DNA of 64,000 bases from an uncultured Actinomycetota bacterium (GCA_964462595.1 CAYWXM010000058.1:90-64089); one strand, 5' to 3'; positions 13,603 through 23,119 are shown, counted from the stretch's first letter. Notes: generated from the letters alone by a model not told the origin. Numbers and translations: made by a program.

Positions 13603-14280
13603 ATGGAAGATTTCAGGTTGAGGGAATTTCTCAACAACCTAGAGGAGGGGCTGCGCGGTGAAGCCAGGGAACTATTCAAGCCCGAGGACTTCGACCGGGA
13701 GCAGTACATCTTCATAGATCAGGACGAGGCCACCCATCTTTACCTGGTAGAAGAGGGTACGGTAGAGGCGAATATCGTCCACGGCGACGGGAAGCTGTAC
13801 ATCCTGAATTTCCTCTATGCCGGCAACGTCTTCGGCGAGGGTGCCCTCTACGAGGAGGGCGTCTATTCCTACTCCGCCGTCGCCCGCGAGCCGTCACGGG
13901 TATGGAGGGTCAGCTGGGACGACCTGCAGTGGCTGGCCTCCCGGGATCCGCTCTTCGCCCTGTACCTGGTAAGGCTCATCGTGCACAAGCTCGACCAAGC
14001 TTACTACAAGGACCGCTGCATCGCGGGGGAGAAAGTCGAGAGGCGCATAGCGTGCGTCCTCATGAAGATCGCAGGAGAGATCGGTATAAGCGACAAGTGC
14101 GGCCTGGTGATCGACACCCCGCTTACCAACCGGGACATCGCCGGGCTCGTGGGCTCCACCGAGGAAACGGTCTCGCGCATCATGAGCCGCCTCAAGAAGG
14201 AAGAGATCATGACCACCGACGGAAAATATCTCGTCATAAAGGACAAGGACGCGTTGACGGCCTACTTCGATGGCATCTGA
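13603..14280 (+). CDS. Crp/Fnr family transcriptional regulator
   Basis: cNMP-binding fold (LYLVEEG, FGE) and HTH LTNRDIAGLVGSTEETVSR; RBS GGAGG. Confidence 0.93.
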   Translation: MEDFRLREFLNNLEEGLRGEARELFKPEDFDREQYIFIDQDEATHLYLVEEGTVEANIVHGDGKLYILNFLYAGNVFGEGALYEEGVYSYSAVAREPSRVWRVSWDDLQWLASRDPLFALYLVRLIVHKLDQAYYKDRCIAGEKVERRIACVLMKIAGEIGISDKCGLVIDTPLTNRDIAGLVGSTEETVSRIMSRLKKEEIMTTDGKYLVIKDKDALTAYFDGI

Positions 14281-14284
14281 CAGG

Positions 14285-14349
14285 ATGATCCATATCATGT
14301 AAGCGCTTGACGTGAATCATTGCTGGGGGAGAGATTGAACGACTATCTT
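14285..14349 (+). promoter_or_regulatory. Two FNR-type boxes plus -10 element
   Basis: ATGAT-N4-ATCAT (14285-14298) and TTGAC-N4-ATCAT (14307-14320); TATCTT at 14344. Confidence 0.65.
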
Positions 14350-14391
14350 AAGTACATGAAAAAGAAAAAGGTTTCTCGAGAGGAGGTAACC

Positions 14392-14535
14392 GTGACCAGC
14401 AATGATAACGGCGGAAGAGGAGGACTCTGCTGCCCTCACTGCGCTGACTCCAAGTATCCATGCGTGACCATGGAGAGGCTGATGCGAAAAGCGGAGGAGG
14501 CGGCTGCGAAAAAGAAGGAAGAGGAAGAGGAGTAG
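14392..14535 (+). CDS. Small Cys-rich protein (47 aa)
   Basis: RBS GAGGAGG then GTG; CCPHC-x5-PC followed by a charged helix; followed by a terminator. Confidence 0.65.
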   Translation: MTSNDNGGRGGLCCPHCADSKYPCVTMERLMRKAEEAAAKKKEEEEE

Positions 14536-14582
14536 GGGTTATCGCAGCCTGCTGAAAGATACAAAAAAGAAGATGCCGGTAT

Positions 14583-14607
14583 GGGCGGAGTCTCCGCCCT
14601 TTTATTT
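14583..14607 (+). terminator. Rho-independent terminator
   Basis: GGGCGGA/TCCGCCC hairpin plus TTTTATTT. Confidence 0.7.
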
Positions 14608-14720
14608 GGCCCCTCACGGGGTGAGATCCCCTGGTTTATGCGGAAACGGGAAAGAGCCCCCCGGAAAAAAACGCCATCAACCCGCGAAGCGGGAAAAGCG
14701 TCAAGGGGGGCAAGAGGTGA

Positions 14721-16526
14721 ATGGACATGGAGAATGAAGAAGGAGAGAAAAAAACCGGTGGGATGGCCGTAGGCGATGATTTCCGTTTCAGCCCGCGCCC
14801 CAACCGCGCCCGCGAGATCGCCTGGCAACCCTGGGGAGACCAGGCCTTTCGGCGTGCCGGGGATGAGGGTAAGGCGGTGCTCCTGTCCATCTCCGCGGTG
14901 TGGTGCCACTGGTGCCACGTAATGGACGAGACGTCATACTCCGACCAGGCGGTGATCGACCTCGTCAACAGCAGGTTCGTACCGGTGCGCGTGGACAGCG
15001 ACCGCAATCCCGACATCAACCGGCGTTACAACCAGGGGGGGTGGCCGACTACCGCTTTCCTCGACCCGCGCGGAAACCTTCTGGCCGGCGCCACCTACAT
15101 ACCTCCCGAGACCATGCGCGTAGCCCTGGAGAGGATATCCGAACTCTACGCCAGCCACGAAACGGTTATAGACGCGCATGAAGCGGATTCACTCTTTCAG
15201 CCGGGACAGGCGGAAAGTCTCGATCCCGGGGTGGTGGAGAGGATCGGGGCACAAATCCTGCGCTCATGGGACCGCGCCCACGGCGGTTTGGGAAGAGAGC
15301 CGAAGTTCCCGCAGGCAGAGGCCTTGTCGTTTGCCCTGGAACTCTATGCGGACGAGGGGAACCAGGAATATCTCGTCTTCGTCCGCAATACGCTGGAGGC
15401 GATGATAAGGGGTAACCTCCTGGACAAGGTGGAGGGAGGTTTCTTCCGCTATTCGACCACCAGGGACTGGTCCGTGCCCCATTACGAGAAGATGCTCTCC
15501 GATAATGCGGCACTGACCGGTGTTCTGCTCAAGGCCTACAACGTGACCGGTGCTGATATCTTCCGCCGCACGGCGGCCGAAACCGCCGACTTCATCTATC
15601 GCACTCTCAGCGACGGTATTTCCAGCTTCTACGGGAGCCAAGACGCCGACGAGCATTATTACACGCTGGGCGCCGCTGAAAGGGAGAGGCTTACCCCCCC
15701 GGCCGTGGACAAGACCGTTTACACCGATACAGCAGCGCAAGCGGCGGTAAGCCTGCTGGTTGAGGGGACGGCCCTGGGGCATGGCGAACACGTTTCCATG
15801 GCCCAGGGCGCGCTGGGATTCCTGTGGTCGCAGCTTTACCGGCCCGGGGATGGAATGGCACACTACCATGATGGGAAGGCGAGGCGCTGGGGGTTACTGG
15901 ATGACGACGCCGAAGCGGCAATCGCGTTCCTGTACGCTTTCGCATACACGGGCGAAAGGCCTTACCTGGACCGTGCGGAGACGCTTCTCCACCTCTTGCT
16001 GGACCTTCACTGGGACGAGAAAAGATCCCTGTTTATGGACACCGCCCCCGGAAAAAGCCTGCCCGGCCTGCGGCCGGAGCCCGCGGAGCCGGGCAGCCAG
16101 TCGCGCGCCGCGGAGGCCATGCTTCTCTACCGATCGTTTGGCGGAGAGGAGAAATGGCGCGATCTCGCCGGCAAGGCTTTGTCCTCGGTTGCACGGATTG
16201 CGGATGCCTACGGTTACATGGCGGCTTCTTTCGCCTCGGCCGTAAACCTGCACCTGCGCGGACCCCTGCTGGTCAAGATCGTGGGGGGCACCGTTGATAC
16301 CGCAAGGCCATTCCTCAGGGTGGCAGCCCTTTCCCCCCAGGCCAGGACGCTGCCGGCTATTTCGGAAAAAATGGGAAGAATAGATGGGGAGATATGGTCG
16401 GAGGTATGCACGTGGCAAGACTGCAGGCTGCACACTGCTGACCCGGAGACGCTGGCGCGCAATCTCGGCGTGACGGCGGAGCTGAGCGAGGAGGTGGATC
16501 AGGGTGAGGGAGGTATACCTGGATAA
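14721..16526 (+). CDS. Thioredoxin-domain protein, YyaL/SSP411 (DUF255) family
   Basis: WCHWCHVM, GGWPTT, PKFP, GGFFRYS..W.VPHYEKML.DNA. Confidence 0.9.
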   Translation: MDMENEEGEKKTGGMAVGDDFRFSPRPNRAREIAWQPWGDQAFRRAGDEGKAVLLSISAVWCHWCHVMDETSYSDQAVIDLVNSRFVPVRVDSDRNPDINRRYNQGGWPTTAFLDPRGNLLAGATYIPPETMRVALERISELYASHETVIDAHEADSLFQPGQAESLDPGVVERIGAQILRSWDRAHGGLGREPKFPQAEALSFALELYADEGNQEYLVFVRNTLEAMIRGNLLDKVEGGFFRYSTTRDWSVPHYEKMLSDNAALTGVLLKAYNVTGADIFRRTAAETADFIYRTLSDGISSFYGSQDADEHYYTLGAAERERLTPPAVDKTVYTDTAAQAAVSLLVEGTALGHGEHVSMAQGALGFLWSQLYRPGDGMAHYHDGKARRWGLLDDDAEAAIAFLYAFAYTGERPYLDRAETLLHLLLDLHWDEKRSLFMDTAPGKSLPGLRPEPAEPGSQSRAAEAMLLYRSFGGEEKWRDLAGKALSSVARIADAYGYMAASFASAVNLHLRGPLLVKIVGGTVDTARPFLRVAALSPQARTLPAISEKMGRIDGEIWSEVCTWQDCRLHTADPETLARNLGVTAELSEEVDQGEGGIPG

Positions 16527-17682
16527 TTACGCGGCGACCCCGCTGGCACCAGAGGTCAGGGAAGCCATGCTGCCTTTTCTTACACATAGCTACGGCAATC
16601 CCTCTTCCCTGCACAGCCGGGGTGACGCCGCCAGGGAGGCTGTGGAGGAGGCGCGGGGAAAAGTAGCCGGCCTCATCTCCGCCAGCCCCGAGGAGATCAT
16701 CTTCACCTCCAACGGCACAGAGGCCAACAACCTGGCGGTAAAGGGCATCGCGGCCGGCTCGCGGCGCAAGGGAAAACACGTTGTGCTCTCCGCCGTCGAG
16801 CATTTCTCGGTGCTTAATGCCGCGCGCTCCCTGGAAAAGCGGGGCTACGAACTGACGCTCGTAGGGGTGGACGAATACGGCATCATCGACCTTGACGAGC
16901 TGGCCGCAGCCATCGGCGAAGACACCGTGCTGGTCTCGGTGATGGCCGCCAACGGCGAGGTGGGCACCGTTCAACCCATAGCGGAGGCCGCCCGAATCGC
17001 GTCGGATAAGGGAGTGCCCTTCCATACCGATGCGGTAGCTGCGGCGGGATCTTTGCCCCTGGACGTAGGCGTTCTGGGCGCCAGCGCACTGTCCCTTTCC
17101 TCCGACCTCATCTACGGCCCGCAGGGCGTCGGCGCCCTGTGGATAAAACGAGGCGTTCGGCTCGTACCCATGCTCGACGGCGGCGTGCAGGAGGGGGGAC
17201 GGCGAAGCGGGACGGAGAACATGCCCGGCATCGTGGGCATGGGGAAGGCGGCGGAGCTTGTCGGGGAGAACATGGCCGCCAGAAACGCCGGTCTCTCGGA
17301 ACTGCGTGATGCCCTCGCAGACGGCCTGACCGGGGGGATAGAGCACTTGTATCTCACCGGACATCCAACCCGGCGCCTGCCGTGGAACGCCAGCTTCGTG
17401 GTGGAGTTCATCGAGGGGGAGGGCATGCTGCTTTTCCTGGACCAGCAGGGAGTGGCGGTTTCCAGCGGCTCTGCATGTACGTCGCGGGCGCTCAAGGGTT
17501 CACACGTTCTCTCCGCGTGCGGTATCCCCGCGGAGAGAGCCCAGGGCTCCATACTCTTCAGTTTCGGCCTCCAGAACACCCGCGAGGACGTGGATCATGT
17601 CCTGGAGGTATTCCCCCCCATCGTGGAGAGATTGAGGCAGATGTCGCCCCTGTACGCGAAATTCAAGAAGGAAGGGGGGTAA
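16504..17682 (+). CDS. iscS: IscS/NifS-like cysteine desulfurase homolog (PLP lysine replaced)
   Basis: YLDNYAATP, GNPSSLH, FTSNGTEANN, SGTEN, SSGSACTS; the SxHK motif reads SSDL. Confidence 0.9.
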   Translation: MREVYLDNYAATPLAPEVREAMLPFLTHSYGNPSSLHSRGDAAREAVEEARGKVAGLISASPEEIIFTSNGTEANNLAVKGIAAGSRRKGKHVVLSAVEHFSVLNAARSLEKRGYELTLVGVDEYGIIDLDELAAAIGEDTVLVSVMAANGEVGTVQPIAEAARIASDKGVPFHTDAVAAAGSLPLDVGVLGASALSLSSDLIYGPQGVGALWIKRGVRLVPMLDGGVQEGGRRSGTENMPGIVGMGKAAELVGENMAARNAGLSELRDALADGLTGGIEHLYLTGHPTRRLPWNASFVVEFIEGEGMLLFLDQQGVAVSSGSACTSRALKGSHVLSACGIPAERAQGSILFSFGLQNTREDVDHVLEVFPPIVERLRQMSPLYAKFKKEGG

Positions 17683-17687
17683 GGGTC

Positions 17688-18071
17688 ATGGCACAATACA
17701 GCGACACCGTTATGGACCATTTCAGCAACCCTCGCAACGTGGGAGAGATCGAGGACGCGGACGGCGTGGGTGAGGTCGGAAACCCCGTTTGCGGGGACAT
17801 GATGACCTTTTATATCAAGGTGGACGATAAAGACCGCCTTGAGGACGTGAAATTCAAGACCTTCGGCTGTGGGGCGGCCATAGCCGTCTCCAGCATGGTC
17901 AGCGAGATGGCCAGGGGAAAGACCGTAGACGAGGCTTTGAAGATATCACGAGACGACGTGGCGCAGGAACTGGGCGGGCTTCCCAAGCAGAAGCTACACT
18001 GCTCCAACCTCGGTGCTGACGCCCTGCACCTGGCCATCGAAGATTACCTGAGCAGGAAAGGAACGAGTTGA
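17688..18071 (+). CDS. iscU: Fe-S scaffold IscU/NifU
   Basis: DHFSNPRNVG, NPVCGD, FKTFGCGAAIA, LPKQKLHCSNL. Confidence 0.95.
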   Translation: MAQYSDTVMDHFSNPRNVGEIEDADGVGEVGNPVCGDMMTFYIKVDDKDRLEDVKFKTFGCGAAIAVSSMVSEMARGKTVDEALKISRDDVAQELGGLPKQKLHCSNLGADALHLAIEDYLSRKGTS

Positions 18072-18072
18072 G

Positions 18073-18261
18073 ATGGAGGAAGGGAAGAAAGTAGAGGCCA
18101 GCGCATGCAAATGCCCGTATTGCGATGCTGACCTCGAGCTTATGGAAGAGCTTTTGCAGTTCTGCAAGCCGTGCAGCATAACCATTATTACCTGCGCGGA
18201 ATGCGGCGGCATGGTCAGGGAGGGCGCGGAAAGATGCCCCGAATGCGGCGCAAAACTCTGA
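18073..18261 (+). CDS. Small double zinc-ribbon protein
   Basis: Four CxxC pairs in 62 aa. Confidence 0.75.
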   Translation: MEEGKKVEASACKCPYCDADLELMEELLQFCKPCSITIITCAECGGMVREGAERCPECGAKL

Positions 18262-18331
18262 GCGGCCCGGCCGGCACGGCGCATGCAGATATAAAGACGG
18301 GGGACCGTCTCCGGGGAGGTGTTCGAGGCTC

Positions 18332-18817
18332 ATGAGCGAAGTTGCCGATAAAGCCACCATAGTCGTTTTCAGCGGGGAGCTGGACCGCGCCCTCGCCGCC
18401 TTCAACATCGCCATCACCGCCGCCTCCATGGGCATGGAGGTTTCCATGTTCTTTACCTTCTGGGGTTTGAACGTGGTTTCCAAAGAGAGCGCGAGCGGCA
18501 ATGACAGGGTTCTCCTGCAGAAGATGATGGGCCTTATGAACAGGGGAGGCGCGAGGCGGCTCAGGCTTTCACGTCTGAACATGCTCGGAGGCGGCAAGGC
18601 GGCCATGAAAAGGCTCATGAGGGATTACCGCATGCCCTCCCTGGAGGAGATGGTGGCCATGGCCGGGGAAATGGGAGTGCGTTTTATCGCCTGTACGACG
18701 TCGATGGCCCTTATGGGGATGTCGGAGATTGATTTCATCCCCGAGGTGAAAGAGTTCGCGGGCGCGGCCACCTACGTGGAGAATGCGGCCGGGTCGAAGA
18801 TCAACCTGTTCATCTAG
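18332..18817 (+). CDS. DsrE/DsrF/DrsH-like (DsrE2) sulfur-relay protein
   Basis: FSGELD, FFTFWGL, FIACTTSM, INLFI. Confidence 0.9.
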   Translation: MSEVADKATIVVFSGELDRALAAFNIAITAASMGMEVSMFFTFWGLNVVSKESASGNDRVLLQKMMGLMNRGGARRLRLSRLNMLGGGKAAMKRLMRDYRMPSLEEMVAMAGEMGVRFIACTTSMALMGMSEIDFIPEVKEFAGAATYVENAAGSKINLFI

Positions 18818-18906
18818 ATTCTCAATGGATCGCGTAGGGGCTCGGACGCAGTCAACACCCCGCGACTCGGGGGGGGTATAAGAAAATCATGAACGGAGGC
18901 GAGAGG

Positions 18907-19137
18907 ATGAAAGCCGACAGAACGCTCGATTGCGTAGGGCTGTACTGCCCCATGCCTATCGTGAAAACCTCGCAGGAGATAAAGAACCTGGAGGACGGGG
19001 AGATCCTGGAGGTGATCGCCGACGACAAGGGGATCGAGAGCGACATGCCGGCCTGGTGCTCCAAGACGGGACACGAATGCCTGGGCATCGAAAAGACCGG
19101 TGGCGAGTTCCACGTATTCGTGAAGAAAAAGGGATGA
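18907..19137 (+). CDS. tusA: TusA-family sulfur carrier
   Basis: LDCVGLYCPMP, EVIADD, DMPAWC. Confidence 0.9.
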   Translation: MKADRTLDCVGLYCPMPIVKTSQEIKNLEDGEILEVIADDKGIESDMPAWCSKTGHECLGIEKTGGEFHVFVKKKG

Positions 19138-19153
19138 ACTGAAAGGAGTTGTA

Positions 19154-19651
19154 ATGGGCGAGCAGACACGCAAGAACCTGCATGACGCCTACACGGGCGA
19201 GTCGAAAGCCGTGGTCAGGCTAAAAGCCTTCGCAGCCAAGGCCGAGGAAGAGGAGTATGACGGGGTGGCCAAGCTGTTCAAGGCGGTAGCGGAATCCGAG
19301 AACGTACACGCCTATAACAACCTGCGCCTGCTGCGCGAGATCATGGACACCGAGACCAACCTGGAGGAAGCCCTGGCAAAAGAGCAGAAGATAGCCGCGG
19401 TCGGCTACGATTCCTTTATTGCCGATGCCGAGTCGGAGGGAGAAAAAGCGGCGGCGACCATGTTCGCTTTTGCCCGCGACGTTGAGGAAAGGCATGCCAA
19501 GCTATACGAGGGCGCCCTGCAGCACATGGTGGCCGATACGATACCGGATTACTATATATGCAGCGTCTGTGGTTACGTGGCCGACGATGTGATCCCCGAT
19601 AAATGCCCCATATGCGGTGCGCCGGAGGACAAGTTCTTCGAGGTAGAGTAG
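19154..19651 (+). CDS. rbr: Rubrerythrin
   Basis: AYTGES, ExxHA twice, C-terminal rubredoxin CSVCGY...CPICGA. Confidence 0.92.
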   Translation: MGEQTRKNLHDAYTGESKAVVRLKAFAAKAEEEEYDGVAKLFKAVAESENVHAYNNLRLLREIMDTETNLEEALAKEQKIAAVGYDSFIADAESEGEKAAATMFAFARDVEERHAKLYEGALQHMVADTIPDYYICSVCGYVADDVIPDKCPICGAPEDKFFEVE

Positions 19652-20295: not shown

Positions 20296-22227
20296 TCAGC
20301 GGGCCTGATAGCTGAAATACGTTGACCGCTCCGCCACCACTCCCGCTTCGCAGCTTACCTCCATGGAGACCTCGTTGGCCTTCCCCGACTCGGCTGCCAC
20401 GTCCACCGTCAAACGGCCCTGGGGGGGCAGCAGGTACTCCCTCCTGACCTTCCCGGCACCGCCAAGCGTATATTCCACCTCCACGATCAGCTCTTGGTCC
20501 TGGGGGTTGAAAAGGGCCAGCCACTCCGAGAAGCCATCGCCGGTGCACCCCTCGGGAAAAAGCCAGTTTTCGCGCGGCTGCGGCGTTCCCTGGCTGCAGT
20601 ATCCCCCTGCTATGTTGTGGAAACGAAAATAGGCGGAGCGCTCCGCGGCCACGGGCAGCAGGCTGGAGAGGATGAGGGAATAATCGACCTCCGGTGGCAG
20701 GTATGCGTTGAGATGGAGTGTTTTTCTCTCTCCCGCTGCCAGGCGCATGGACTCCCTTCTCATCGATCCGTCCGACACCACCATGTCGATCTCAAGCCAG
20801 GTGTCATATGCGCACGGGTTGAGGACGATAAGATAGTTATCGAAAAATCCCCGCGTCGTGCCCTCGGCGAAATACCAGCGCACGCCGGGCTGCGCAATGC
20901 CGGGCGAGCTGTGGGAGCCGGTGAGGGTATCGCCGTAAACGAAATACTCCGACCTCTCCGCCACCACGGGGATGCTGGAATTAACCACCGCCGAGTAGTC
21001 TCCTTCCTCCGCCATGTCGTTGACCCTCAAGGTCAGCCTCGACAGGGGCAAGACATCGAAGGAGCTTGTGCTCGCTTCTTTCCCCGGTCCGCTCAATTCC
21101 AGCTCCACTCGGGCGGGGGTGGCGGCGGAGGTATTGAAGATGGCAATATATTCCTCGAAACCCGGCCTTACCGTGCCCTCGGGAAAGAAGTAAACCCTCG
21201 AGGCATCGTTGATGCTGCGTGACAAAGACCCCCCGCTGTAGCCGCTCCCGCGGTTGAAATAGAGCATCCTCTCGACCGCCACCGGAACCGACGACTCCAG
21301 GACCACCGAGACGTCGTCCAGCCAGGAGACCTCGTCCTTTACGTATATGGAAAGCCTTTCCCGCGGCGGAACGGTATGCACTGTATCCGCCGACCCCTGC
21401 GCCGAATAATATTTCGCCTTGATCGAAGCCGGCACGTCTCCGGGGTTGAACACCAGCAGCCACTCCTCGTACCCGTTTCGGGTGGTGCCTTCCGCGAAGT
21501 AATGGCGTTTCGCGGCATCGCTTATGCCGGGTCCGGAATCCCCACCCCTCACCAGTTGTTTCCATCCGTACAACTCGCTCAGGGTAACGAAACCGAATCC
21601 CTTTTGCTGCAGACCCTGCACCACCCCCATCACCAGCTCCAGGGTGTTGCGGCCCCCGAAATGAAAGAGGATGATATCCCCGTCCCCTGCGCCTCCGACC
21701 ATGTGGTTCACGCGGTCCTGCACGGACAGGCCCGCGTTCAAGGCATCCTTGCTGTCGAAGTCCCACATCACCGGGGCATATCCGGCGGTTGCAGCAATGC
21801 CTGTTACCCTGGCATCGATAGCTCCGCCAGGCGGGCGGAATAAGGGAAGATACTGGCCGGTCGCGGCGCCGATCACCGCCTGGCATGTGTTCAGCTCCGC
21901 GACGATCTGTTGATCGGTCAGCTTGGTGAGCCAGGGATGGTTCTGGGTATGGTTGCAGACGTCCCAGCCCAGGGAGTCCATCTCCTGCAGCAACGAGGTA
22001 TTTTTCTGGGCCCACGACCCGATGACGAAGGCGGTAGCGGTTATGCCCTGGGAATTCAGATATTCAAGGATGCGATGGTCGAAGTTGTAGCCGTCGTCGA
22101 AGGTCAGCACCACACGCGGCGGCGAAGCCGCGCCTGCCTCCCGGCCTGCTCCCGACGAGGGAAGCAGGTAGAGAAGCGCCAGGAGCATGGCAAGCGCTAC
22201 GGCCACCTTACGGGCAAAGCGATCCAC
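20296..22227 (-). CDS. Secreted polysaccharide deacetylase (NodB domain) with four C-terminal YFAEG repeats
   Basis: Signal peptide, LTFDDG, NHTQNH, FRPPGG, ILFH; repeats YFAEGTT..GY/FEEW/Y. Confidence 0.88.
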   Translation of the reverse strand: MDRFARKVAVALAMLLALLYLLPSSGAGREAGAASPPRVVLTFDDGYNFDHRILEYLNSQGITATAFVIGSWAQKNTSLLQEMDSLGWDVCNHTQNHPWLTKLTDQQIVAELNTCQAVIGAATGQYLPLFRPPGGAIDARVTGIAATAGYAPVMWDFDSKDALNAGLSVQDRVNHMVGGAGDGDIILFHFGGRNTLELVMGVVQGLQQKGFGFVTLSELYGWKQLVRGGDSGPGISDAAKRHYFAEGTTRNGYEEWLLVFNPGDVPASIKAKYYSAQGSADTVHTVPPRERLSIYVKDEVSWLDDVSVVLESSVPVAVERMLYFNRGSGYSGGSLSRSINDASRVYFFPEGTVRPGFEEYIAIFNTSAATPARVELELSGPGKEASTSSFDVLPLSRLTLRVNDMAEEGDYSAVVNSSIPVVAERSEYFVYGDTLTGSHSSPGIAQPGVRWYFAEGTTRGFFDNYLIVLNPCAYDTWLEIDMVVSDGSMRRESMRLAAGERKTLHLNAYLPPEVDYSLILSSLLPVAAERSAYFRFHNIAGGYCSQGTPQPRENWLFPEGCTGDGFSEWLALFNPQDQELIVEVEYTLGGAGKVRREYLLPPQGRLTVDVAAESGKANEVSMEVSCEAGVVAERSTYFSYQAR

Positions 22228-22234
22228 CTTCAGC

Positions 22235-23119
22235 CTATACCTCCAGGTCCTCCTGCAATGCCAACTCCTCAACCACGTCACCTATCGCCCTGCATGCTAC
22301 GCGGGGGTCGGAGCCACCCGAGAGCACGTAGCATACCCGTTCCGGGAAGGACTCCTTCACCTTGCGCGCGAAAAGGCCATACGCACCATCGCTCAATTCA
22401 AAGGCGCCGTAATCGTCGCGATGGCTGTCGTGCCCGAAGATGATGAAGAGCAGGTCGTGCTGGAAGCCCTTGACCGCCCGCAGGGCTTCGTCTACCCCGG
22501 ACATGAAACGGTCGTCGGAAGCATTATGGGGAAGGTCGATATCCAGGTTGTTGGGACCCGCCTCGCCGACCCCGGGGAAACCGGAATGGAAATTTACGTG
22601 CAGGACGTCGGCGTCCGCCCCCAGGATGTCCCGGGTGCCGTCGCCGAAATGGGGGTCGATATCTATGATAGCGAAGCGGCTTGCCAGCTTTTCATCCCGA
22701 AGATAGGTGACGGCCATGGCCACGTCGTTGAGATAGCAGAAGCCCCAGAACCCGTCCTCGCTGGCATGATGCCCGGCCGCGCCCACGAAGCAGAAAGCGG
22801 CCGACGCCCTTCCGGATACCACCTCGAGTGCGCCACGGATCACCGCGCCGGCGGAAAGAAGAGCGATCTCTTTATATCCGCTGTTGGCCACGCCGCGCAT
22901 ATGCGATTTGCTGTGTACGCGGGCCGCCAGCGCTTCATCGGCGGCTTCCGCCGTTATCACCTCCACTCCGCTGCGCTCGAGAAGGCCGCGCGCGCGCAGC
23001 TCTTCATAGGCGGGTGAGATACGGTCACGCAGCGCCGGATAACCGCGGACCGCGAAATCGGGATGATAAACCAGGGCGAGTTTATATCCCCTCACACCTG
23101 TTTCCTTATCGCCATGCAT
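22235..23119 (-). CDS. Histone deacetylase-family (Zn-dependent) deacylase
   Basis: GHHA, GFCYLND, DIDPHFGDGT, GHDSH; the terminal motif reads LSGGS. Confidence 0.88.
   Translation of the reverse strand: MHGDKETGVRGYKLALVYHPDFAVRGYPALRDRISPAYEELRARGLLERSGVEVITAEAADEALAARVHSKSHMRGVANSGYKEIALLSAGAVIRGALEVVSGRASAAFCFVGAAGHHASEDGFWGFCYLNDVAMAVTYLRDEKLASRFAIIDIDPHFGDGTRDILGADADVLHVNFHSGFPGVGEAGPNNLDIDLPHNASDDRFMSGVDEALRAVKGFQHDLLFIIFGHDSHRDDYGAFELSDGAYGLFARKVKESFPERVCYVLSGGSDPRVACRAIGDVVEELALQEDLEV

Follow-up and report, generated by a model that had tools for sequence, protein, structure and literature searches.

In Archaeoglobus fulgidus, the IscS2 protein carries Asp199 in place of the lysine that binds pyridoxal phosphate (PLP) and, according to published accounts, holds pyridoxamine phosphate (PMP), is devoid of desulfurase activity and supplies a cysteine ligand to the [2Fe-2S] cluster of its scaffold partner IscU. 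A D199K variant is described as still containing PMP, and IscS1 of Methanosarcina acetivorans is reported to lack the lysine as well, so IscS without this lysine (Lys-less IscS) is a known kind of protein. A 2022 review of cysteine desulfurases treats [2Fe-2S] assembly on A. fulgidus IscS-IscU without a desulfurase as a question, and free sulfide is the sole answer it gives. Here we analyze a window (the whole stretch of DNA studied, 64,000 nucleotides, positions counted from its first letter) from an uncultured Actinomycetota bacterium (GCA_964462595.1 CAYWXM010000058.1:90-64089), in which a Lys-less IscS-like protein, denoted IscS*, is encoded upstream of genes for IscU, a zinc-ribbon protein, a DsrE-like protein and the sulfur carrier TusA. 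We find tusA beside nearly all Lys-less iscS genes whose context could be decided and beside none of the Lys-bearing ones.

Comparison with described systems assigns IscS* to the same kind as the A. fulgidus protein. The A. fulgidus IscS2-IscU structures (4eb5, 4eb7, 4hvk and 4r5f) share its type-I fold (E = 1.2e-116 to IscS*), and 4eb5 reads HIDATA, SSNDIYGPKG and GTLLLTL at the key sites, with Gln183 replaced by Ala and Arg354 by Leu (Escherichia coli numbering) as in IscS*. These shared losses uphold the A. fulgidus-type assignment made in an earlier annotation of the window from sequence alone (the sequence-only reading). The cysteine loop and an adjacent iscU are kept in both, and they differ at the lysine site, with Asp-Leu in bacterial IscS* and Asn-Asp in A. 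fulgidus. TusA, DsrE-like and zinc-ribbon partners go unmentioned for the A. fulgidus system in the literature searched.

The minimal ISC system MIS (MisS-MisU) and clostridial-type NifS-NifU pairs have the same two-gene core as the window, a desulfurase-like protein and a scaffold, and no HscA/B, IscA or Fdx was found by Pfam among all genes of the window operon. Published accounts of MIS include a cysteine desulfurase, whereas IscS* lacks the catalytic Lys and Arg in its sequence, and the window module extends beyond the two-gene core with the zinc-ribbon (znr), dsrE-like and tusA genes. The SMS (SufBC-only) system, as far as published accounts go, assembles Fe-S clusters in anaerobes from sulfide and likewise without a dedicated cysteine desulfurase; its SufBC scaffold is unrelated to IscU, and the accounts available report no sulfur carrier protein for it. 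The core features of the window operon are the following.

16504..17682, + strand: IscS*, 392 amino acids, type-I cysteine-desulfurase fold without the PLP lysine (Pfam Aminotran_5, 1.3e-73)
17107..17109, + strand: CTC codon for Leu where the Schiff-base Lys206 would be encoded (translation and E. coli alignment)
17688..18071, + strand: IscU/NifU-type scaffold (Pfam NifU_N, 1.2e-51), starting 5 nt past the IscS* stop
18073..18261, + strand: double zinc-ribbon protein, 62 amino acids (weak Pfam matches below cut-off), starting 1 nt past the IscU stop
18332..18817, + strand: DsrE-like sulfur carrier (PF13686; Pfam DrsE_2, 1.4e-47)
18907..19137, + strand: TusA-family sulfur carrier (Pfam TusA, 7.1e-27)

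IscS* was aligned with E. coli K-12 IscS (from NC_000913.3), which serves as the reference for numbering. The segment 17086-17133 translates to ALSLSSDLIYGPQGVG, and the alignment bears out the central observations of the sequence-only reading, namely the motif SSDLIYGPQG with Leu at 17107-17109, HTDAVA, and an intact SSGSACTS. The lost residues comprise K206 (L202 in the window protein), H205 (D201) and Q183 (A179, within HTDAVA), together with R354 (L351) and N155 (G151); the last two and the H205 change had not been listed before. Residues T76, H104, D180, T243 and C328 are kept, the last as C325 in the SSGSACTS loop. In published IscS/NifS structures, R354 binds the substrate and Q183 lies at the cofactor. 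With the Schiff-base Lys, the substrate-binding Arg and the cofactor Gln all lost, IscS* would no longer be able to take sulfur from cysteine, and by analogy with A. fulgidus IscS2 we infer that it is inactive as a cysteine desulfurase. Genes of this type are named "cysteine desulfurase" in source records, a name that is probably wrong about their activity. The protein has the aminotransferase class-V fold (PF00266, positions 1-370 of 371) and scores below the NCBIfam equivalog cut-offs for both NifS, the nearest model (480.3 vs 530.75), and IscS (368 vs 643).

The substitution is real. The sequence-only reading had itself named a sequencing artefact absent in relatives as an objection, and we rejected both an artefact and a pseudogene: the iscS* frame is intact, a change from AAA or AAG to CTC takes two substitutions or more, and homologues lack the lysine too. 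Among the 120 best homologues (67-100% identity), 114 matched the motif pattern and the other 6 did not; none of the 114 has Lys (0/114), all have Asp at the His position (114/114), and the Lys position holds L, M, E, G, A, Q or I. All 120 carry SSGSACTS and Ala for Q183. The closest homologues come from Actinomycetota near "Candidatus Geothermincolia" and "Solincola", as named in the sources. Among 51 genomes of the window's class, 41 hold an orthologue of at least 66% identity and 43 a match at E ≤ 1e-120.

The joint loss extends to distant relatives. A phmmer search over 1.84 billion cluster representatives (50% clusters) was evaluated for its best 150 matches (42-63% identity), of which 24 lack Lys in the K206 column. 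Of these 24, Q183 is lost in 22 and R354 in 21, and Cys is kept in all; among the 126 Lys-bearing representatives, Q183 is lost in 6 and R354 in 1. These counts indicate that Q183, K206 and R354 are lost together. This bears on the possibility that IscS* is still an active desulfurase working through another base or cofactor mode, a reading that can appeal to the conserved pocket residues H104, D180, T76 and T243 and to the PMP reported in A. fulgidus IscS. The joint loss speaks against it, as does the reported inactivity of the A. fulgidus enzyme, whose D199K variant still had PMP. Moreover, no substitute Lys stands at the K206 site in the alignment, where L, M, E, G, A, Q, I, D, N, S and P occur, and with the position so variable nothing replaces the Lys in place. 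We consider continued desulfurase activity very improbable. A nearby Lys standing in for K206, an objection raised in the sequence-only reading, was not found in the aligned sequences. K331, six residues past Cys325, is a nearly invariant Lys in the Lys-less set and is not specific to this form, since the same Lys occurs in the Lys-bearing Protein Data Bank (PDB) chain 9wep.

Chain 9wep belongs to the closest solved chains (9wep, 9wer, 9wew, 9wf8, 9wfb, 9wfe and 9wfy), which represent a single 406-aa 'cysteine desulfurase' in seven versions. Their changes fall exactly on the sites considered here (HTDAVQ to HTDAAP, AHK to AHL, SVRF to SVVF), one chain has Leu at the Lys site, and the series appears to be an experimental study by others of the Lys-bearing/Lys-less transition. 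No paper behind these entries was found in the literature searched.

The sequence-only reading had coupled IscS* to TusA, and a survey of genomic neighborhoods strongly extends this association. For a first sample we took one genome per species and the best 80 loci (49-86% identity, flanks up to 8 kb), scored the key columns, and located neighbors by tblastn with the window proteins, counting a gene as beside iscS when it lies within 3 kb. The sample contains 72 Lys-less loci and 8 canonical loci with the Q..HK..R set. tusA lies beside 58/72 Lys-less and 0/8 Lys-bearing genes, and iscU beside 62/72 and 8/8. The remaining window genes are beside Lys-less genes only: the zinc ribbon in 44/72 vs 0/8, dsrE-like in 35/72 vs 0/8, rubrerythrin of the window type in 25/72 vs 0/8, and yyaL in 12/72 vs 0/8. 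In most loci without tusA, contig ends are too near to decide; where at least 2.5 kb of contig is available on both sides, tusA adjoins 42/44 Lys-less and 0/5 Lys-bearing genes. A second sample was drawn from 201 genomes of the archaeal phylum of locus L086, using the A. fulgidus-like representative P0140 as query (30 loci, ±1.5 kb). It yielded 19 Lys-less loci of the A-S-N-D type, 15 of them with tusA, and 11 canonical loci with none (0/11). Pooling all 91 loci of decidable context, tusA is beside 72/77 Lys-less and 0/14 Lys-bearing genes.

The Lys-less loci span more than ten bacterial phyla plus archaea, with Actinomycetota (24), Chloroflexota (14), Nitrospirota (10), Aminicenantes (5) and Elusimicrobiota (4) among the sources. 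Others come from Thermodesulfobacteriota, Bacillota, Caldifarciminota, Pseudomonadota, Latescibacterota, Desantisiibacteriota, Bathyarchaeota, Methanobacteriota and unnamed bacteria. Lys-less IscS is thus a large family in many anaerobic phyla and archaea and not a one-off. Gene order differs between phyla: iscS*-iscU-znr-dsrE-tusA is found in Actinomycetota, some Chloroflexota and Elusimicrobiota, iscS*-iscU-znr-tusA in other Chloroflexota, and tusA-iscS*-iscU in Nitrospirota; tusA is upstream in archaea too and downstream elsewhere. The linkage to TusA has therefore survived rearrangement. No paper linking TusA or DsrE to a Lys-less IscS was found in the literature searched.

A structural model places TusA at the cysteine loop of IscS*. 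The predicted complex comprises an IscS* pair (alignment A2, 55 rows) and TusA (alignment A3, 54 rows) and has ipSAE interface scores of 0.75, 0.75 and 0.74, compared with 0.03 for the best of 3 controls. The mark for this score is attained by 58/80 solved complexes and 2/110 mismatched pairs, and is rough here, given custom alignments and two copies. The runs share at least 82% of contacts, with partner pLDDT of at least 85. Modelled contacts involve TusA residues 14, 16-22, 24-26, 28, 45-47, 52, 55-56 and 59-60, and on IscS* residues 85 and 217-233 of one subunit and 101-112 and 328-331 of the other. The TusA Cys loop (16-22) touches IscS* 328-331, beside Cys325 of the second subunit. E. coli IscS-TusA (3LVJ) likewise joins a TusA-family protein with a conserved Cys to an IscS-fold dimer, and the model employs the same two TusA helices and the same second-subunit IscS Cys loop. 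In E. coli, sulfur goes from active IscS to TusA for tRNA thiolation, whereas for the window we propose flow into IscS* and IscU.

In the proposed relay, IscS* would dimerise and hold IscU in the manner of the A. fulgidus (IscS-IscU)2 complex, and TusA loaded with persulfide sulfur would dock onto the IscS* dimer. A DsrE-like carrier would load TusA in about half of the loci, and the upstream sources of sulfur could be the canonical desulfurases of the cell or reactive sulfur species. Sulfur would then move from TusA Cys20 to the mobile Cys325 loop of IscS* and on to IscU, and the same loop could provide a ligand to the cluster as it forms. At IscU, the double zinc ribbon with its eight Cys would probably assist by handling metal or electrons. 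We regard the chances as evenly balanced that persulfide sulfur travels from the DsrE-like protein to TusA, from there to the IscS* cysteine, and then to IscU. The direction of sulfur flow through TusA is something we infer, as we do the role of the ribbon and the link to stress discussed below. The comparison makes TusA a concrete candidate sulfur donor and the ribbon a candidate accessory metal-binding protein.

Several observations weigh against this relay. The partners are not universal, since dsrE and znr are beside only 35/72 and 44/72 Lys-less genes, and 5/77 decidable Lys-less loci have no tusA neighbor. Locus L086 has no tusA within ±8 kb, and in L054 the dsrE-tusA pair lies 4.4 kb upstream on the other strand. 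Four loci (L058 and L061-L063) carry iscS*-dsrE-tusA with no iscU within reach. On a 91-row FastTree tree, in which bacterial and archaeal Lys-less sequences fall on one side of a branch, the Lys-less state needs one change (sign test p = 1), and the TusA association is thus a single independent contrast. Fisher values (1.1e-5 for 80 loci, 1.1e-12 for 91 loci) overstate the evidence and are not readable as probabilities. A 214-row FastTree tree including the cluster representatives needs at least 6 changes, 4 of them forced by well-supported branches (shuffled mean 69), and puts the window protein among 71 rows that form an exclusively Lys-less clade, with 7 archaeal Lys-less rows in a clade of their own. 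The evidence for TusA is a neighborhood kept over very long distances and through rearrangements, and not repeated co-evolution.

Similar caution applies to the modelled complex and to the pocket of IscS*. The E. coli contacts described for 3LVJ are IscS W45, E49, D52, R55, R220 and R237, with C328 and L333 of the second subunit. The model shares with this site just the R220-R237 loop and L333; helix alpha2 (W45, E49, D52) is absent from its confident contacts, and W45 is Asp in IscS*. As the IscS-TusA complex has already been solved, the passing score may reflect memory. E. coli TusA and IscU are reported to be unable to bind IscS simultaneously, IscU displacing TusA, and with such competition a relay would need alternating binding or the use of both protomers. 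The invariance of H104 and D180 shows a pocket still under selection, which may still hold a cofactor. Across the alignment of 55 Lys-less sequences, no variation occurs at H100, D176, T237 or C325 (IscS* numbering).

The published A. fulgidus model offers a simpler alternative, in which IscS* holds IscU and lends a Cys ligand, free sulfide of the anoxic surroundings supplies the sulfur, and TusA and DsrE are present through co-regulation or for another pathway. A. fulgidus IscS-IscU(D35A) is described as carrying a [2Fe-2S] cluster, for which the authors proposed free sulfide, and SMS systems are reported to use sulfide. The occurrence of dsrE in just 35/72 Lys-less loci also speaks for this model. 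The presence of tusA at 72/77 Lys-less and 0/14 Lys-bearing genes across reordered loci is left unexplained by sulfide alone, as is the predicted interface between the TusA and IscS* Cys loops, and we consider this alternative rather unlikely. The A. fulgidus complex was reportedly made in E. coli; if so, its cluster formed with no cognate archaeal TusA, although E. coli has a TusA of its own, which would favor sulfide alone over the carrier relay.

The proteins encoded with IscS* retain the residues expected of working partners. Window IscU has Cys36, Cys62, His105-Cys106 and Asp38, its three Cys are kept in 61/61 aligned homologues, and it scores above the NCBIfam NifU_clost cut-off (197 vs 187.9 bits). 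Together with the 5-nt gap between the genes, this agrees with the earlier description of iscS* as coupled to a normal IscU. The ribbon protein has eight invariant Cys in the pattern CxCP[YF]C..CxxC..CxxC..CPxCG (37 aligned sequences). IscU and ribbon form a single open reading frame of 190-197 aa in three Aminicenantes loci (L053, L054 and L057), and extension of the reading frames suggests the same fusion in L051 and L055. These fusions argue that the ribbon acts physically with IscU; with the ribbon beside 44/72 Lys-less genes and fused to IscU in at least three loci, its place as a partner in the sequence-only reading is supported in part. Its AlphaFold2 model has a mean pLDDT of 66, and Foldseek found no match in the PDB at E ≤ 0.001, with generic zinc ribbons first. 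A rubredoxin fold was considered and is not supported by this search, in which a rubrerythrin C-terminal domain ranks just 18th (E = 2.3); only the motif CxxCG...CPxCG hints at a likeness to rubredoxin knuckles. An ESM Atlas search with the ribbon returned unnamed "double zinc ribbon" clusters alone.

Both carriers keep an invariant cysteine. Cys20 of TusA (LYCPMP) is kept in 59/59 aligned sequences; the protein scores 93.5 bits against a Pfam cut-off of 28.6 and 59.2 against 78 for the NCBIfam E. coli-type equivalog, and so is a family member whose orthology to E. coli TusA is not established. Its start is assigned to ATG 18907 by homologue consensus, with ATG 18889 open as well. Cys121 of the DsrE-like protein is kept in 34/34 aligned homologues, and the closest solved structure is 3pnx, a 'putative sulfurtransferase dsrE'. 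This protein exceeds the Pfam DrsE_2 cut-off (162 vs 25 bits) and falls under the NCBIfam DsrE2 equivalog cut-off (72.8 vs 210), and we therefore call it DsrE-like: the DsrE-type neighbor claimed earlier is found in 35/72 Lys-less loci, but its naming as DsrE2 is not supported. A DsrE-family protein accompanies TusA in the E. coli Tus relay too, where TusA hands sulfur to TusBCD, which is DsrEFH-like. In sulfur oxidisers, DsrE3/DsrE2-TusA pairs form persulfide or thiosulfate relays (Metallosphaera cuprina, sHdr systems). There, as in the window, a PF13686 DsrE-like protein with one conserved Cys stands beside TusA; those relays feed dissimilatory sulfur oxidation, whereas the window pair lies inside an iscS*-iscU operon in an anaerobe-type genome.

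These partners bear on a second alternative, in which the relay serves a purpose outside Fe-S assembly, for example tRNA thiolation or a thio-cofactor, after the pattern of E. coli IscS-TusA-TusBCD, with IscS* as adaptor and IscU as sulfur or cluster donor to a thiolation enzyme. E. coli TusA is reported to take sulfur from IscS for 2-thiouridine, and for 4-thiouridine a TusA/IscS/IscU neighborhood around a ThiI variant has been put forward. The four loci without iscU would suit such a use, and their dead IscS may work with the carriers alone; they come from WOR-3, Thermodesulfobacteriota and an actinomycete metagenome-assembled genome. However, PP-loop ATPase, MnmA, ThiI and MoaD/ThiS-like genes are all missing from the recurrent neighbors, which are oxygen-defence genes, and IscU with all cluster ligands is present in 62/72 Lys-less loci, in some of them fused to the metal-binding ribbon. 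We consider a non-Fe-S use improbable.

Oxygen-defence genes recur beside Lys-less iscS. Rubrerythrin of either type is found in 36/72 Lys-less and 0/8 Lys-bearing loci, so the co-location noted in the sequence-only reading is general, while its further claim that rubrerythrin is a redox partner finds little support. Counting rubrerythrin, flavodiiron protein, flavin reductase, Fur-family regulator and hemerythrin-PAS protein together, 39/72 Lys-less and 0/8 Lys-bearing loci have one or more. In Chloroflexota loci such as L038, a Fur-family regulator precedes the operon, which runs on into rubrerythrin, flavin reductase, a DUF438-hemerythrin-PAS protein and a flavodiiron protein. Regulators of the Rrf2 family are shared by both classes (12 Lys-less and 6 canonical loci), and the regulator varies by phylum, with CRP/FNR in the window, Fur-family in Chloroflexota and Rrf2 in Nitrospirota. 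This co-location suggests that the module may serve anaerobes at times when their clusters are endangered by oxygen or peroxide.

The same neighbors would also fit a flow of sulfur the other way, with IscS*-IscU collecting S0 and iron from clusters damaged under oxidative stress and parking the sulfur on TusA and DsrE to be reused safely. Persulfide transfer between thiols is reversible as a matter of general chemistry, and rubrerythrin, flavodiiron, hemerythrin-domain and Fur-family genes at 39/72 Lys-less vs 0/8 Lys-bearing loci are what salvage would lead one to expect. Co-location with stress genes fits de novo assembly at times of stress equally well, however, and the regulators differ by phylum (CRP/FNR, Fur-family, Rrf2); we give this reverse flow only a slight chance. 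Our broader proposal extends the forward relay from TusA to IscU. Here Lys-less IscS would be no degenerate remnant but the hub of a distinct, widespread Fe-S route of anaerobic Bacteria and Archaea, running from the DsrE-like protein through TusA and the Cys of the dead IscS to IscU, with the ribbon giving metal or electrons, and switched on with rubrerythrin and flavodiiron defences under conditions in which clusters suffer damage from O2 or peroxide and harm would come from free sulfide or cysteine. We advance this proposal tentatively, as possible rather than probable. If true, it would settle where A. fulgidus-type IscS-IscU obtains its sulfur and would give the MIS/ISC family a carrier-fed branch. 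The comparison also hints that strict anaerobes may have an Fe-S system for oxygen stress, which would match ecologically the SUF system of aerobes.

The core genes belong to a run of nine head-to-tail genes, all on the + strand (13603-19651), defined by the list of open reading frames, Pfam and junction analysis. The remaining features of the run are the following.

13603..14280, + strand: CRP/FNR-family regulator (Pfam cNMP_binding and HTH_Crp_2; NCBIfam matches all below cut-off)
14320..14535, + strand: small Cys-rich open reading frame, 71 aa with a CCPHC motif, an uncertain gene (no Pfam or NCBIfam match)
14583..14599, + strand: terminator-like GC hairpin, then TTTTATTT, between the small open reading frame and yyaL (consensus scan only)
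14721..16526, + strand: YyaL-type protein, DUF255 thioredoxin-like plus six-hairpin domain (Pfam Thioredox_DsbH, 1.5e-33)
19154..19651, + strand: rubrerythrin (Pfam Rubrerythrin, 1.7e-13, and RUBY_RBDX, 2.9e-11), 16 nt past TusA

Successive junctions in yyaL-iscS*-iscU-znr-dsrE-tusA-rbr measure -23, 5, 1, 70, 89 and 16 nt, the first being the overlap of the yyaL 3′ end with the IscS* start, and a GGAGG-like site lies upstream of every start from yyaL on. The YyaL protein, earlier put forward as a redox partner, is hardly supported in that role, as its gene is lineage-specific (12/72 Lys-less loci). Window rubrerythrin scores above the Pfam cut-offs for its diiron domain (51.6 bits) and RUBY_RBDX (43.1 bits) and below the NCBIfam equivalog cut-offs. 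The CRP/FNR-family regulator has no N-terminal Cys cluster, and a homologue is likewise located upstream of IscS* in Actinomycetota loci. The 71-aa reading frame combines the CCPHC motif with a Lys/Glu-rich tail and is matched by tblastn at the equivalent position in 11 related loci (including L015-L020, L022-L024 and L037). The hairpin at 14583-14599 is the best terminator-like candidate of the region, in a scan that gave 10 sites in total against 6.8 expected, and is a possible upstream border of the operon. No inverted repeats were found in 14250-14760, just two short GC palindromes lie upstream of the regulator gene, and the promoter scan was at chance level (3 found vs 2.3 expected). A look-up of RNA runs containing this DNA returned none.

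The genome as a whole (3.15 Mb in 73 contigs, 95.5% complete) encodes canonical desulfurases besides IscS*. Two type-I paralogues with HK, Q and R lie on contigs C14 and C42, a third class-V enzyme is on C29, and further IscU-like genes are on C36 and C24. We therefore rejected an organism without desulfurases, and the desulfurase-independent system of the sequence-only reading can hold for the module only, not for the organism. At least one canonical copy is also kept in 5/5 other genomes checked that bear a Lys-less gene. Because canonical desulfurases are kept, the IscS* module is an extra system and not the sole route of the cell. Contig C1 carries an overlapping SufC (250 aa) and SufB-like (415 aa) pair (L012:299-2259, + strand), and no SufS, SufD or SufE was found in this 3.7-kb locus. 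The pair is an SMS-like arrangement in the same genome.

The only other TusA of the genome is a 197-aa TusA-DsrE fusion on contig C67 (L143:3294-8352, + strand). It lies between a selD-like gene (AIRS) and selA-selB, and so probably serves selenium metabolism and not the Fe-S operon. The canonical Lys-bearing IscS domain on C42 is part of a 1145-aa fusion (L140:2310-5747, - strand), the other portion of which is a molybdopterin oxidoreductase with Fe4S4, Molybdopterin and Molydop_binding domains. A gene for a histidine-specific methyltransferase (Methyltransf_33) adjoins the fusion gene. Similar open frames of ~1130-1150 aa occur in genomes G003, G005 and G075 and in P0202. The fusion may resemble the metallopterin-dependent ergothioneine synthase. 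Downstream of the window operon, on the opposite strand, 20296-22281 (-) encodes a 661-aa polysaccharide-deacetylase/DUF5719-type protein. Members of this family take the same position in 7 related loci, and a paralogue lies beside the C42 fusion protein.

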